Source: an uncultured bacterium (GTDB lineage: Bacteria; Omnitrophota; Omnitrophia; Omnitrophales; CAZPNG01). From it: a stretch of 26,529 nt of DNA. This document shows positions 2,669-5,678 of this stretch, in pieces (position 1 is the first letter of the stretch; each line of letters opens with the position of its first letter). The translations under genes were made by a program, and so were the position numbers. Below the pieces are notes generated by a model. It saw only the letters and a program-made list of their open reading frames with translations, was not told the origin of the DNA and searched no databases. The stretch is from NCBI GenBank assembly GCA_964587845.1, contig CAZPNG010000154.1, forward strand, positions 1 through 26,529, written 5' to 3'.

Positions 2669-3431
2669 CGATGGCATCGACGCGCCGGGTCTGGTGGCGC
2701 TCGAGACCCACCTGGCCGCGCGGCACGCCGTCGCGACCGTGGCTCCCCGTTTCCATGTCTCGGGATCCGGCCACAGCATCTCGCTTTCCAAGCCCATGCG
2801 GGTGGAGCGGCGCAAGCGGGGGAGTGTCGAGCTTTGCTCGATCGAGGGCACGCCGGCGGACTGCGTCAAGTTCGCGCTGTTCGGCCTGGGACTGAAACCC
2901 GACGTGGTCTTGTCAGGATTCAACCTTGGCGCCAACACGGGCGTGAGCGTGCATTACTCGGGCACGGTTTCTGCGGCGCGTGAGGCCTTGATTGCCGGAA
3001 CGCCTGCGATCGCCCTCTCGGTCGCGTCGCGCGAGGTTCATGACTTTGCCGGGCCGTGCCGGGTGGTGGACGTCCTCCTGGCTCATGAAGCTTTGTGGCG
3101 GGACCCCCTAGCCACCATGCTCAACGTCAACATTCCGCCCGTGGCCCTTGGCGAGATCAAGGGGATCCGGGTCACCCAGCAAGCGCGCTCGCGGTTTGCG
3201 GAGAACTTTCAGTGGCAGGGCTCCGGAGAGGATGAAACGGTGCTTCTGACAGGCGAGATTCTCTTGATCGAGGACAATGCGCATGCCGACGAGGAGGCCG
3301 TGCGTTCGGGCTACGTGTCGGTGACGCCGCTTGGGCTCGATCTGACGGATTACAAGCGCTGGGAAAGTCTAAAGGCGCGCGAGGGGGACTTGGATAGCCG
3401 TGACTGGCAGGGGAGGAAGCCTAGTGGGTGA
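2646..3431 (+). CDS. surE: 5'/3'-nucleotidase SurE
   Basis: NILLTNDDGIDAPGL, SGSGHSIS, GTPADCVK, SGFNLGANTG..YSGTVSAAREA, GYVSVTPL. GTG start overlaps the end of the upstream gene. Confidence 0.97.
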   Translation: MNILLTNDDGIDAPGLVALETHLAARHAVATVAPRFHVSGSGHSISLSKPMRVERRKRGSVELCSIEGTPADCVKFALFGLGLKPDVVLSGFNLGANTGVSVHYSGTVSAAREALIAGTPAIALSVASREVHDFAGPCRVVDVLLAHEALWRDPLATMLNVNIPPVALGEIKGIRVTQQARSRFAENFQWQGSGEDETVLLTGEILLIEDNAHADEEAVRSGYVSVTPLGLDLTDYKRWESLKAREGDLDSRDWQGRKPSG

Positions 3432-3612
3432 GCGAGCTGTCGAGGGTTTCGAAAATGATGGTGACAAGGTTGTTGCACTTGGGGCACTTGATTTGTTTGA
3501 AGGCCTGGATGTTCTCGTGCTTGGGCCGGTACATGATGCTCAGCACGCGCGTGACAAAGCGCGATTCATCGCCGGTCCATTCGCACGAAGAGCATGTGTA
3601 CAACGGTTTCAC
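3421..3612 (-). CDS. Small zinc-ribbon protein (63 aa), function unknown
   Basis: GTG at 3612 is preceded on the minus strand by AGGAAG. The protein MKPLYTCSSC..KQIKCPKCNNLV has two CxxC pairs. Its stop overlaps the surE end convergently. The ORF track uses a TTG at 3633. Confidence 0.65.
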   Translation of the reverse strand: MKPLYTCSSCEWTGDESRFVTRVLSIMYRPKHENIQAFKQIKCPKCNNLVTIIFETLDSSLTH

Positions 3613-3686
3613 GCTATTCTTCCTTTCCCTCAAGCGGCCCCGTGTTAGGAACCTATCGGCCTCGGAAGGCCTAACTTTAACCCGCC

Positions 3687-3714
3687 TTGGCAGGACTCTT
3701 GCTCCTTCTAAAGT
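3687..3714 (+). promoter_or_regulatory. Possible sigma70 promoter for the tandem secreted-protein pair
   Basis: TTGGCA (3687-3692), 16-nt spacer, TAAAGT (3709-3714). Imperfect match to consensus. Confidence 0.3.
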
Positions 3715-3818
3715 CTACTTGATCCCTGGCCTCAATCCTAGGGGGTTCCTGCCGATACATTAATGGGCAGGCTCCGTATGCCTTTTCGCGTAGGGACTGC
3801 CACAGAAAGGAGGTTGTT

Positions 3819-4139
3819 ATGAAAAAGTTGATGGTGCTGGCAATCGTAGCCATGATGGTGTTGAACCTGGCGCCCGGGGCGTACGCCTTGGGAGAGCTGA
3901 ATCCCGACATGACGAAAGTCTTCACTCGGGGATTCAAAAACGCCCTGACCTTTTGGGTGGAGGTGCCCAAGACCCTCTACCATGAAGGCAAGGCGGAGCC
4001 GGGGAAGGGCCACCTTCGGGGCGTTTTTCTCGGCCCCATGAAGGCCTTCGAGCGTGCCTTGAGCGGTGTCTGGGATATGGCGACCTCGCCATGCAGCCAG
4101 GCTGACAGGCTGGCCGTCGATCCTGAAACGTTGATTTAG
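3819..4139 (+). CDS. Secreted small protein, resembles the TIGR04073 (exosortase-system-associated) family; paralogue 1
   Basis: Strong SD AAAGGAGG. Signal peptide MKKLMVLAIVAMMVLNLAPGAYA. Pattern RGFKNALTFWVEVPK..G..LGP..A.ER.LSGVWDMATSP..DPETL recalls that family. The family match is from memory, not a search. Confidence 0.7.
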   Translation: MKKLMVLAIVAMMVLNLAPGAYALGELNPDMTKVFTRGFKNALTFWVEVPKTLYHEGKAEPGKGHLRGVFLGPMKAFERALSGVWDMATSPCSQADRLAVDPETLI

Positions 4140-4187
4140 CGGTAGCGAACTGCTTGGTTTGGCGAGACTCAGAAAGGAGCGTGTAGG

Positions 4188-4532
4188 GTGAGACGCAGAA
4201 GAGAAATTTTGGTTGTGGGGTCAGCCGCCCTGCTCATCGTTGCGTTGGCGTGCCCGGCGTTTGCGGGCGACTACTTCACGAACATGGCCAACGCTTGGAC
4301 GCGAGGCGTGACCAATGTCGCCACCTGTCCCCTGGAAATCTTCAAGACGCTGGACAAGTATCACTCCGGCGAATTGGGCGTCAAGATCAAAGGGGTGAGC
4401 TGCATTCAGGGCTTGGTTCACGGCACGGGCAAGGCGGCTATCCGCGCTGCGAACGGCGCGTGGGATATCGTGGCGGGTCTCATCCCCGGTCACCAGGACG
4501 GGATACCGCTCGATCCGGAAACCCTGGTTTAA
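4188..4532 (+). CDS. Secreted small protein, TIGR04073-like; paralogue 2
   Basis: SD AAAGGAG 8 nt before GTG. Signal peptide ends AFA. RGVTNVATCPLEIFK..GLVHGTGKAAIRAANGAWDIVAG..PLDPETLV is homologous to the upstream gene, and both end DPETL[IV]*. Confidence 0.7.
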   Translation: MRRRREILVVGSAALLIVALACPAFAGDYFTNMANAWTRGVTNVATCPLEIFKTLDKYHSGELGVKIKGVSCIQGLVHGTGKAAIRAANGAWDIVAGLIPGHQDGIPLDPETLV

Positions 4533-4554
4533 CGCGAAACACTGTCCAAAAATT

Positions 4555-4614
4555 AGGAGGCGTTATCAAAGCCGATCCCTGAAGGGTCAGCTCTGATAAC
4601 GCCTCCTGTTTTTT
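4555..4614. terminator. Probable bidirectional intrinsic terminator
   Basis: Perfect 14-bp stem AGGAGGCGTTATCA (4555-4568) / TGATAACGCCTCCT (4594-4607), with further pairing in the 25-nt interior. An A-run precedes it (4548-4552) and a T6 run follows (4609-4614). It lies between convergent transcription units. Confidence 0.7.
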
Positions 4615-4669
4615 AGGGCGTGGTGCCGGTGGACCTACCCCCGTGGCATCAGTTGTTCGTGAAAGCAGA

Positions 4670-5254
4670 CTAATCTTTCTTTGCCAGACCCAGGACTTCT
4701 AGGAATTCGTCCACATTCTTGGAGACACGAATCGTGTGTTTTATCTTGGCGGATTGCGGGATTTTATAAAGGTGAGCCGTAAAACCGAGTTTGGCGATCG
4801 CGGCCATAACGTCGGTTGCTAAACTTGGCAGCATCGTTACGAAATTTACCATCTTGTATGCCCTGTCGTAGTAAATAGAGCCGTCGGTTTCAATGAGCCC
4901 CTGGAGGCAAGGGATGATGAAGCGTTTATCGTTTTGAATCCAGCGAGGAACGGAAACTTGCTGGCGGTATTTCGGCCCCTTGTCTGCTTTCCATCCGAGC
5001 CACCTCTCCCATCGATTGGAATAACAGCTAATGTCGACACAATTTTTAGGACGGCGTACAAGACTTACTTTATTATGCGGCAGGAGAGTTTGAATCGCTC
5101 TACAGATGCGGCGGAGAATGCTCTTGTATTTAACGTCACACGTGATTCTCAGTCTGGTAGCTCCACGGTTAGGATTTGAAAGATTGCCGTCCCCGATCGC
5201 GGCACCTACCACATAGGCTAAGACTTTCCTATCTACATCATGCAGATGAGGCAT
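4670..5254 (-). CDS. Free-standing double-motif LAGLIDADG homing-endonuclease-like protein (~194 aa)
   Basis: Two LAGLIDADG helices, LAYVVGAAIGDGNL and CLQGLIETDGSI. The first ATG outside the tRNA-Leu gene is at 5254; the ORF-track extension to 5368 runs through the tRNA. Hand-counted GC is ~47-48% in two sample lines versus ~65% in a leuS line. Confidence 0.88.
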   Translation of the reverse strand: MPHLHDVDRKVLAYVVGAAIGDGNLSNPNRGATRLRITCDVKYKSILRRICRAIQTLLPHNKVSLVRRPKNCVDISCYSNRWERWLGWKADKGPKYRQQVSVPRWIQNDKRFIIPCLQGLIETDGSIYYDRAYKMVNFVTMLPSLATDVMAAIAKLGFTAHLYKIPQSAKIKHTIRVSKNVDEFLEVLGLAKKD

Positions 5255-5257
5255 TCG

Positions 5258-5340
5258 TGCCGCTGGTCGGAGTCGAACCGACATGAGCTCGCGCTCACAG
5301 GTTTTTGAGACCTGCATGTCTGCCATTCCATCACAGCGGC
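5258..5340 (-). tRNA. tRNA-Leu(CAA), CCA not encoded
   Basis: GCCGCTG/CAGCGGC acceptor stem plus discriminator A. Anticodon arm CAGGT-CTCAAAA-ACCTG. Long variable arm TGAGC-GCGA-GCTCA. T arm GTCGG-TTCGACT-CCGAC. The gene is followed by CGA rather than CCA. Confidence 0.95.
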
Positions 5341-5345
5341 ATAAC

Positions 5346-5444
5346 GTGTACCTGAGGGGATTTGACACCTGCGGCTCGCTCTGTCTTTCTGCGTCTCGCT
5401 GGCGCTCGACGCGGCCAGGCTTGCCCCAAGTCGGCCACAGGCCC
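5346..5444 (-). pseudogene. tRNA-Ala-derived remnant with an unrelated GC-rich hairpin interior
   Basis: The 5' end GGGCCTGT is identical to the adjacent tRNA-Ala 5' end. The 3' end CAGGTGTCAAATCCCCTCAGGTACAC resembles CAGGGGTTCGAATCCCCTCAGGTCCAC, with 13 identical nt (5350-5362 vs 5479-5491). There is no recognisable anticodon arm and no CCA. Confidence 0.6.
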
Positions 5445-5472
5445 GCTCAATTCGAGATCACATGCACCATCT

Positions 5473-5548
5473 TGGTGGACCTGAGGGGATTCGAACCCCT
5501 GACCCTCAGCATGCCATGCTGATGCTCTGCCGGCTGAGCTACAGGCCC
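5473..5548 (-). tRNA. tRNA-Ala(GGC)
   Basis: 76 nt. GGGCCTG/CAGGTCC acceptor with the G3:U70 alanine identity pair. Anticodon arm TCAGC-ATGGCAT-GCTGA with A32/U38 as in known Ala(GGC) tRNAs. T arm AGGGG-TTCGAAT-CCCCT. ACCA end is encoded. Confidence 0.96.
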
Positions 5549-5595
5549 GTGTAAGCTTATTTAGAAGACCCCTCGTGTCTGACTGATCACTCGGG

Positions 5596-5656
5596 GTATA
5601 AATTCGCGCGGTGACTTACGTCTGCTGAGTTCCGTAAGTCACGCGCTCATTTATAC
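5596..5656. repeat. Long imperfect inverted repeat in the tRNA/leuS divergent intergenic region
   Basis: GTATAAAT..GCGCG-GTGACTTACG (5596-5620), 12-nt loop, CGTAAGTCAC-GCGC..ATTTATAC (5633-5656). The inner 10 bp pair perfectly. Confidence 0.75.
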
Positions 5657-5678
5657 TTACATTTTTTTGCCTTGTCAA
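5650..5678 (-). promoter_or_regulatory. sigma70 promoter for the tRNA-Ala / tRNA-Leu / endonuclease transcript
   Basis: Minus strand TTGACA (5678-5673), 17-nt spacer, TATAAA (5655-5650). Confidence 0.7.

Follow-up and report, generated by a model that had tools for sequence, protein, structure and literature searches.

A LAGLIDADG endonuclease gene family directly behind tRNA-Leu(CAA) in Omnitrophota and Patescibacteria, probably of the free-standing homing type

To our knowledge, self-splicing introns and inteins are the only settings in which homing endonucleases are believed to survive in essential genes. Those of the LAGLIDADG type recognize a long (~20 bp) specific DNA site and leave 4-nt 3' overhangs. 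Free-standing homing endonucleases are known mainly from phages: SegB of phage T4, encoded beside tRNA genes, and the other Seg and Mob proteins are free-standing GIY-YIG or HNH enzymes of phage genomes with their own expression signals, for which "intronless homing" has been proposed, i.e., cutting of a nearby allele lacking the endonuclease gene, whereby flanking markers are co-converted. Yeast HO endonuclease and bacterial WhiA are domesticated LAGLIDADG proteins outside introns and inteins; WhiA has lost the catalytic residues, carries a C-terminal helix-turn-helix (HTH) domain and is universally conserved in its lineages. Messages lying directly behind a tRNA and freed by tRNA-processing nucleases are known from mitochondrial tRNA punctuation, which yields messages with little or no leader, and from the E. 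coli tufB operon. In bacteria of the candidate phyla radiation (CPR), LAGLIDADG genes occur in insertion sequences of 16S and 23S rRNA genes, often group I introns, and their patchy distribution has been attributed to homing; tRNA is not mentioned in that study (PMC11270868). Here we describe a LAGLIDADG endonuclease gene that starts three bases behind a complete tRNA-Leu(CAA) gene in contig CAZPNG010000154.1 (assembly GCA_964587845.1) of an uncultured bacterium of the Omnitrophota, together with its relatives in other genomes. The whole stretch analysed, 26,529 nt, is called the window; loci in other genomes and contigs carry L numbers.

In lifestyle, the nearest described systems are the free-standing phage endonucleases such as T4 SegB, with which the present gene shares its free-standing position next to tRNA genes; it differs from Seg and Mob in being of the LAGLIDADG type, in lying in bacterial chromosomes within a few bases of one particular tRNA, and in its absence from the phage collections searched, with no match pointing to a phage origin in INPHARED (tblastn, 50,697 phage records) or IMG/VR. 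In host range, the nearest are the LAGLIDADG genes of CPR rRNA genes (PMC11270868). Host group, superfamily, conserved RNA-gene targets and patchiness are alike; those genes are placed inside the rRNA genes, whereas the present family forms a separate compact clade outside the mature RNA and is tied to tRNA-Leu(CAA).

The initial annotation, made from the letters alone, had described a low-GC double-LAGLIDADG open reading frame (ORF) without intron or intein, starting just past the tRNA-Leu(CAA) discriminator, lacking a Shine-Dalgarno (SD) motif, separated by no promoter from a promoter-like site at 5650-5678, and closed by a bidirectional terminator; this description was borne out throughout. 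Coordinates of all features are given in Table 1. The GC content of the ORF is 0.479 vs 0.642 for the rest of the window; its ATG lies at 5254-5252 and its TAG at 4672-4670. The tRNA-Leu(CAA) gene, uninterrupted, is placed at 5257/5258-5340 (-) by ARAGORN and Rfam; its acceptor stem (GCCGCTG/CAGCGGC) leads to discriminator A at 5258, CCA is not encoded, and neither a promoter nor a ribosome-binding site can fit in the junction that follows (5255-5257). No SD-like motif precedes ATG 5254, though its absence was set aside as a special feature, as such motifs occur in just 23 of 262 neighbouring ORFs (~9%, a crude baseline). The N-terminus read from ATG 5254 aligns with the N-termini of homologues, which makes 5254 a sensible start; translation from within the tRNA (232-aa ORF from GTG 5368) was rejected, as gene-caller extensions through the tRNA differ in frame between members.

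The only candidate promoter of the unit formed by tRNA-Ala(GGC), tRNA-Leu(CAA) and the endonuclease gene is the site at 5650-5678, upstream of tRNA-Ala. It was confirmed by eye only, and is missing from the consensus scan because the scan rule demands a T at the end of the second hexamer, where an A stands here; on the - strand from 5650 to 5254 the same scan lists no sigma-70-like site. Downstream, the terminator hairpin (-54.3 kcal/mol; z = -8.9; equal stability in 0 of 200 shuffles) ends both the endonuclease unit and the convergent + strand ORFs.

The 194-aa protein scores above cut-off with Pfam LAGLIDADG_3 (30.3 bits; cut-off 22.5) and with the Pfam WhiA-type LAGLIDADG domain (26.2 bits; cut-off 23.2). 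Alignment of the catalytic acidic residues, proposed at the outset, was done with 26 sequences (the window protein and 25 homologues): D22 and D124 (contexts LAYVVGAAIGD22G and IIPCLQGLIETD124G) are kept in every one, and the stretches G21-D22-G23-N-L-S-N-P-N and D124-G125-S126 are invariant. The AlphaFold model (predicted local distance difference test 94; predicted template modelling score 0.90) has two domains, each alpha-beta-beta-alpha-beta-beta-alpha, the architecture of the DNA-binding saddle of single-chain LAGLIDADG enzymes, in which helices 9-22 and 110-124 carry D22 and D124 at their C-terminal ends. Foldseek places it with the intein endonuclease domains of TliVMA and PI-SceI and with I-DmoI and I-Tsp061I at a template modelling (TM) score of ~0.7 (probability 1.00 for I-DmoI, I-Tsp061I and PI-SceI). 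I-DmoI and I-Tsp061I are the best structural matches of free-standing size (TM 0.70-0.77) and agree with it in length (~190 aa), in the single chain with two LAGLIDADG domains and in the acidic residue closing each helix; they differ in sequence (15-18% identity) and in being encoded in archaeal rRNA introns, whereas the present gene is intron-less and lies behind a tRNA. A sequence search of PDB gave nothing close (I-DmoI and I-Tsp061I as the sole endonuclease matches; I-DmoI at E ~0.2), no NCBIfam model fits the protein, and PHROG holds no match for it. Judged from the model and the alignment, it is an active-looking single-chain LAGLIDADG enzyme.

Two other identities for the protein were tried and rejected. 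The N-terminal domain of WhiA, also a free-standing LAGLIDADG fold, is the next structural match (TM 0.66); the present protein differs in keeping both catalytic Asp residues, in having no HTH domain, in scoring 15.2 bits with TIGR00647 (WhiA; cut-off 44.1) and in its patchy distribution, with close relatives lacking the gene, so that it is not a WhiA-like binding protein, a case that the initial annotation had named among its refutations. An intron- or intein-encoded endonuclease was rejected as well: the tRNA is uninterrupted, Rfam finds two tRNAs only, and filled and empty sites differ by the ORF alone.

Homologues of the window protein, 53-66% identical to it and ~190 aa long, fall into 958 protein clusters, with a compact core of 46 clusters at E <= 1e-30 (50% clustering); some are already labelled "LAGLIDADG family homing endonuclease" by NCBI, and the named hosts are Patescibacteria/CPR and Omnitrophota. 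Pairwise identity over all sampled members, from the two phyla, is 47-82%. At all six loci of the first four homologues, tRNA-Leu(CAA) directly precedes the gene on its own strand, among otherwise varying neighbours (ParAB, aminotransferase, topoisomerase and others). The survey of LAGLIDADG genes abutting tRNA 3' ends that had been suggested was then carried out over one genome per species (185,579 species genomes; 80 GTDB species loci and others examined). Relatives were found in 175 of the species genomes, and tRNA-Leu(CAA) lies directly upstream on the same strand at 65 non-redundant junctions, the start codon lying a median of 6 nt past the discriminator (1-3 nt in 19 loci); at several junctions the ATG comes after or takes in the first bases beyond it. 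Over all genomes and contigs compared, the pairing recurs at well over 100 loci from uncultured members of the two phyla. The gene is divergent from tRNA-Leu(CAA) in L015 and convergent with it in L037, and the bond to this tRNA persists despite the changed orientation. The tRNAs of the occupied loci L002 and L007 are nearly identical to alleles of Omnitrophota without the gene (L087, L089). To judge from these genome comparisons, in both Patescibacteria and Omnitrophota the family appears to have its fixed home in the 3' trailer of the tRNA-Leu(CAA) gene.

A conserved C behind the discriminator was considered as a mark of the element and rejected, being general in CPR tRNAs: among the non-Leu tRNA genes of the CPR loci in L001-L086, C stands at position 74 in 25 of 28, and the full CCA is encoded in only 6.

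A sister family of ~250-aa proteins (90-115 bits with the family profile) occurs in phage-like DNA where small ORFs and tRNA genes abound. Its genes lie 20 nt past a tRNA with anticodon UAA (L210); 12 nt past tRNA-Leu(UAA), with an SD and nine more tRNAs following (L212, 2404-5199, a phage-like contig in which the gene is wedged behind the first tRNA of a 10-tRNA array); and with the stop codon abutting tRNA-Leu(GAG) (L213, L214). A truncated 5' fragment of tRNA-Leu lies just upstream in both L210 and L212. Because these relatives adjoin other tRNA-Leu isoacceptors, the habit of residing beside tRNA-Leu genes is probably older and wider than the CAA family.

Comparison of the locus in relatives, the first check put forward in the initial annotation, shows that the gene is neither fixed nor syntenic and thus does not refute the initial reading. 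The leucyl-tRNA synthetase of the window is at most 69% identical to anything known, with top matches all in Omnitrophota. In three loci of this phylum (L087-L089) the tRNA-Ala(GGC)-tRNA-Leu(CAA) pair, also present in L001, stands beside or near leuS with neither the endonuclease gene nor a remnant. L001, which is occupied (protein 65% identical), and L089, which is empty, share the order tRNA-Ala, tRNA-Leu, 70-aa zinc-ribbon ORF, aminotransferase, aldehyde dehydrogenase; the zinc-ribbon ORF directly follows the endonuclease gene in L001 and tRNA-Leu in L089. The two differ by ~600 nt from the tRNA 3' end, the distance from the tRNA to the next conserved block being 626 vs 27 nt. In syntenic CPR pairs (L139/L163, L061/L138, L209/L197) the ORF fills a tRNA-Leu-miaA spacer of ~20 nt. 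The sole difference between filled and empty sites is the ORF.

An unbiased sample was drawn of 120 metagenome contigs, picked solely by a 31-nt anticodon/variable-arm pattern of a common CPR tRNA-Leu(CAA) allele; 93 had at least 700 nt downstream of the tRNA. A match was found in 12 of the 93. In ~10 the gene is intact and directly follows the tRNA; L132 has a short remnant, and two matches are distant and lie elsewhere on the contig. This gives an occupancy of ~11% of CPR tRNA-Leu(CAA) genes of one allele class. Decayed copies carry stop codons (L026, L058), a frameshift (L048) or a truncation (L132). Gene GC is below flank GC in 84 of 86 loci. The ratio of nonsynonymous to synonymous substitution rates (dN/dS) is 0.06-0.12 between diverged pairs, in which silent sites are saturated, and indicates that the gene is under strong purifying selection. 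Its distribution and decay indicate that it is mobile, or at least dispensable. A signal of recent transfer was sought in gene vs flank identity and not upheld: the two are mostly concordant, and the gene is better conserved in a few pairs only (e.g., L038/L047, 87% vs 72%).

Pieces of tRNA-Leu flank some copies. A 3' fragment (local alignment score at least 13) lies within 70 nt past the stop codon in 8 of 68 occupied loci vs 0 of 301 control windows, starting at tRNA position 33 (L048), 47 (L045), ~62 (L019) or 68 (L039). Compared with the intact upstream tRNA, the fragments show paired compensatory stem changes and so derive from another allele. L080 shows the opposite case: 58 nt upstream of its intact tRNA lies a 5' fragment covering positions 1-34, with four differences. 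These footprints suggest that a cassette of tRNA sequence and ORF was inserted into a resident tRNA-Leu, restoring an intact tRNA and leaving decaying pieces of the old one; the mobile unit would then include tRNA sequence, and the break may lie inside the tRNA gene, not in its flank. In several loci, few cases in all, the break points fall at positions 24-36 and so hint at the anticodon arm, whose sequence is by nature nearly palindromic, a property that LAGLIDADG enzymes favour in their sites. In the window itself, the possible remnant CCACCGGCACCA has an alignment score of 7-10, which is only in the top 5% of control windows and weak, not significant alone.

Further elements were seen at tRNA-Leu(CAA) genes. 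An 81-aa GIY-YIG ORF lies 6-27 nt upstream of this tRNA, on the same strand, in three distinct CPR contigs (tRNA-forward coordinates: L121, 891-1133, identical to L128; L144, 3661-3903; L200, 4996-5244); in L121 and L144 it is preceded by a hairpin and by a second copy of the tRNA 5' half, which runs as far as the anticodon loop (..CGACTCA). The arrangement mirrors that of the LAGLIDADG genes. In seven endonuclease-less loci (L090, L184, L113, L168, L169, L137, L151) a GC-rich, strongly self-complementary element of 140-300 nt directly follows tRNA-Leu(CAA), starting with an inverted copy of the T-arm and closing with 18-20 nt that repeat the tRNA 3' end exactly and in direct orientation; Rfam holds no family for these elements. 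In several CPR lineages (L139, L163, L061, L138, L209, L197) miaA starts ~20 nt past tRNA-Leu(CAA), where a promoter cannot fit, so that from its layout this site seems to give a native tRNA-mRNA co-transcript even without the endonuclease gene; tRNA-Leu(CAA) is presumably among the substrates of MiaA itself.

Taking these results together, we consider the gene to be probably a selfish, free-standing homing endonuclease gene that rides tRNA transcription. Lacking a promoter of its own, it would be transcribed by read-through from the tRNA promoter (TTGACA/TATAAA, 5678-5650) through tRNA-Ala and tRNA-Leu, an idea strengthened by the start-codon gap at the 65 loci, which leaves a promoter no room. 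Host tRNA 3'-end processing would free the tRNA and leave an mRNA whose leader measures 0-20 nt (3 nt here), to be translated as a leaderless or near-leaderless message. As processing would free the tRNA, insertion would cost it nothing, in the way that splicing makes introns and inteins harmless. In mitochondrial tRNA punctuation and at tufB the genes concerned are ordinary host genes, whereas here the same principle would serve a selfish gene and render its insertion harmless. The enzyme would cut tRNA-Leu(CAA) loci without the gene, and repair would copy the gene in; from the foreign-allele fragments beside some copies, the copied unit may take in part or all of the donor tRNA, and the break may fall inside the resident tRNA gene, perhaps in its anticodon arm. 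More tentatively, and with a probability that we put below even, tRNA-Leu and the endonuclease gene could form a self-contained gene-replacement homing cassette, in which the enzyme would break the resident tRNA-Leu gene, mostly in the anticodon arm where break points cluster, and repair would install the tRNA copy of the cassette followed by the promoter-less ORF; the resident tRNA promoter and the cellular tRNA-processing nucleases would then express both.

Several observations weigh against a selfish gene that rides tRNA transcription. RNA runs holding the window or two CPR loci were looked for and none was found. In L057 a terminator and the gene's own AT-rich leader separate it from the tRNA; no tRNA adjoins the gene in L034, L060 or L077, two of which share a promoter-like sequence; in 5 of 65 loci a canonical start codon is missing between the tRNA and the conserved N-terminus. 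Read-through from the tRNA would thus seem the rule, not an absolute requirement. Gene divergence is mostly similar to that of the alignable flanks and gene GC tracks host GC (r = 0.81), which together argue for long vertical residence rather than frequent recent transfer, and intact copies far outnumber decayed ones (~95% intact), as a gene useful to the host would show. Identical full-length tRNAs occur with and without the gene (L110 vs L101 and L127; L209 vs L093 and L126), and no immunity substitutions were found in the tRNAs of carriers; with a target wholly inside the tRNA gene, carriers should then cut themselves. Instead, the site may reach across the boundary between tRNA and trailer, or loss of the gene from former carriers may account for the empty copies whose tRNAs are identical. 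The main rival takes its strength from several of these points: a domesticated LAGLIDADG protein, kept for host benefit and inherited mainly vertically, for example as a nuclease that destroys incoming DNA with an unoccupied tRNA-Leu(CAA), in defence or competition, or as a regulator of the tRNA operon. The low dN/dS across silent-saturated pairs, the shared divergence of gene and flanks, the tracking of host GC, the share of intact copies and the unusual conservation of the whole protein over two phyla would all be expected of it. It is nevertheless unlikely, given that the gene is found in only 175 of 185,579 species genomes and at ~11% of tRNA-Leu(CAA) genes of one allele class, is missing from close syntenic relatives and decayed in others, and has a GC content consistently under that of its host; both catalytic residues are retained, unlike in a WhiA-style binding protein, no partner genes accompany it, and no PADLOC-type context was seen.

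Co-divergence of gene and flanks, and identical tRNAs with and without the gene, hence no immunity signature, would also suit a relic: the gene would have inserted behind tRNA-Leu(CAA) once, long ago, and since then been inherited vertically and lost many times, with the tRNA association a founder effect and the target, if any, elsewhere. We regard this as quite unlikely: the gene stands behind host-type tRNA-Leu(CAA) in two phyla (the L002 and L007 tRNAs resemble the empty alleles L087 and L089), the gene also adjoins this tRNA in inverted orientation (L015, L037), some copies are bordered by tRNA fragments of a foreign allele, the distant sister family lies behind other tRNA-Leu isoacceptors in phage-like DNA, and a dN/dS near 0.1 is not expected of an unselected ORF. 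Repeated independent arrival at tRNA-Leu genes would need targeting. In a minority of loci the gene is followed by repeats of the tRNA 3' end, as is typical of integrase attachment (att) sites, and these would fit the cargo of an integrase-moved, tRNA-targeting element; however, they are confined to that minority and stem from a different allele, the ~600-nt insert is the ORF alone, without a recombinase or integrase, and it was not found in the phage and viral collections searched. Nor would an endonuclease of an overlooked intron or intein agree with a complete tRNA in which Rfam finds no intron and an ORF not embedded in the frame of a host protein. Both versions are largely refuted and very improbable. 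The favoured reading remains the selfish, tRNA-riding homing endonuclease gene.

Other features of the window surround the unit. The tRNA-Ala(GGC) gene is called at 5473/5476-5548 (-) by ARAGORN/Rfam, and its spacer to tRNA-Leu is 132 nt in the window and only 1-9 nt in L001, L087 and L089. Within it, 5345-5445 (-) resembles a gutted duplicate: two tRNA-Ala ends (GGGCCTGT... and ...AATCCCCTCAGGTaCAC) around an unrelated GC-rich core. The ~95-nt leader from the promoter-like site to tRNA-Ala (5560-5645, -) contains an inverted repeat, perfect over 14 nt (GCGCGTGACTTACG ... CGTAAGTCACCGCGC), as well as a second hairpin (CCCCGAG...CACGAGGGG). Between the terminator and the zinc-ribbon ORF lie two paralogous small ORFs, 3819-4139 (+), 106 aa, and 4188-4532 (+), 114 aa, each with a signal-peptide-like N-terminus and a C-terminal end ...DPETLI/V; they have no Pfam match and are not at the corresponding position in L089, and in L001 a gene of 115 aa at a similar place is listed as PF28289. 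DNA runs X1-X4 (4-9x over the locus) gave no clear polymorphism; a contig joint of 3542 to 5257 in run X4 comes from a related organism and is too short-sided for interpretation.

Table 1 Features of the endonuclease locus in the window, with coordinates on the forward strand
Feature	Coordinates	Strand	Basis
Promoter-like TTGACA (5678-5673), 17 nt, TATAAA (5655-5650)	5650..5678	-	Read by eye
tRNA-Ala(GGC), first gene of the unit	5473..5548	-	ARAGORN; Rfam tRNA 66.4 bits
tRNA-Leu(CAA), complete, uninterrupted	5258..5340	-	ARAGORN; Rfam 54.9 bits; acceptor stem pairs 7/7
Junction CGA, discriminator to ATG	5255..5257	-	Three bases, read from sequence
Gene of predicted free-standing single-chain LAGLIDADG homing endonuclease, 194 aa + stop	4670..5254	-	Pfam, homologues, model
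First LAGLIDADG helix, residues 12-23, LAYVVGAAIGDG	5186..5221	-	Catalytic Asp22 codon 5189-5191
Second LAGLIDADG helix, residues 113-125, IIPCLQGLIETDG	4880..4918	-	Catalytic Asp124 codon 4883-4885
Possible decayed tRNA 3'-end remnant CCACCGGCACCA	4621..4632	-	37 nt past stop codon; local alignment
Bidirectional intrinsic terminator, 24-bp hairpin between A6 and U5	~4546..4615	both	Fold computation
70-aa zinc-ribbon-like ORF, syntenic anchor	3421..3633	-	No Pfam family

No published description of an endonuclease gene tied to tRNA-Leu(CAA) was found in a full-text literature search, with most subscription journals outside its reach. The protein class is already known; the fixed tRNA partnership, the promoter-less fusion to a tRNA trailer and the cassette footprints, as far as can be told, are not. 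The family points to another solution, in bacterial chromosomes, to life in an essential gene: residence in a tRNA trailer, where the tRNA promoter and tRNA processing would give expression and remove the insert. If the cassette exists, homing endonucleases would have a third means, beside introns and inteins, of residing in such a gene without harm, and the GIY-YIG gene upstream of the same tRNA, with its duplicated 5' half, would be its mirror image. If the reading is right, these loci would offer a natural, testable case of a bacterial mRNA made by tRNA 3' processing and translated leaderless, and the proteins would make up a new class of compact meganucleases (~190 aa) in which the conserved DNA-binding surface presumably recognizes a tRNA gene; as a marker, the gene would also allow gene flow to be traced inside and between the Patescibacteria and the Omnitrophota, for which there is almost no genetics.

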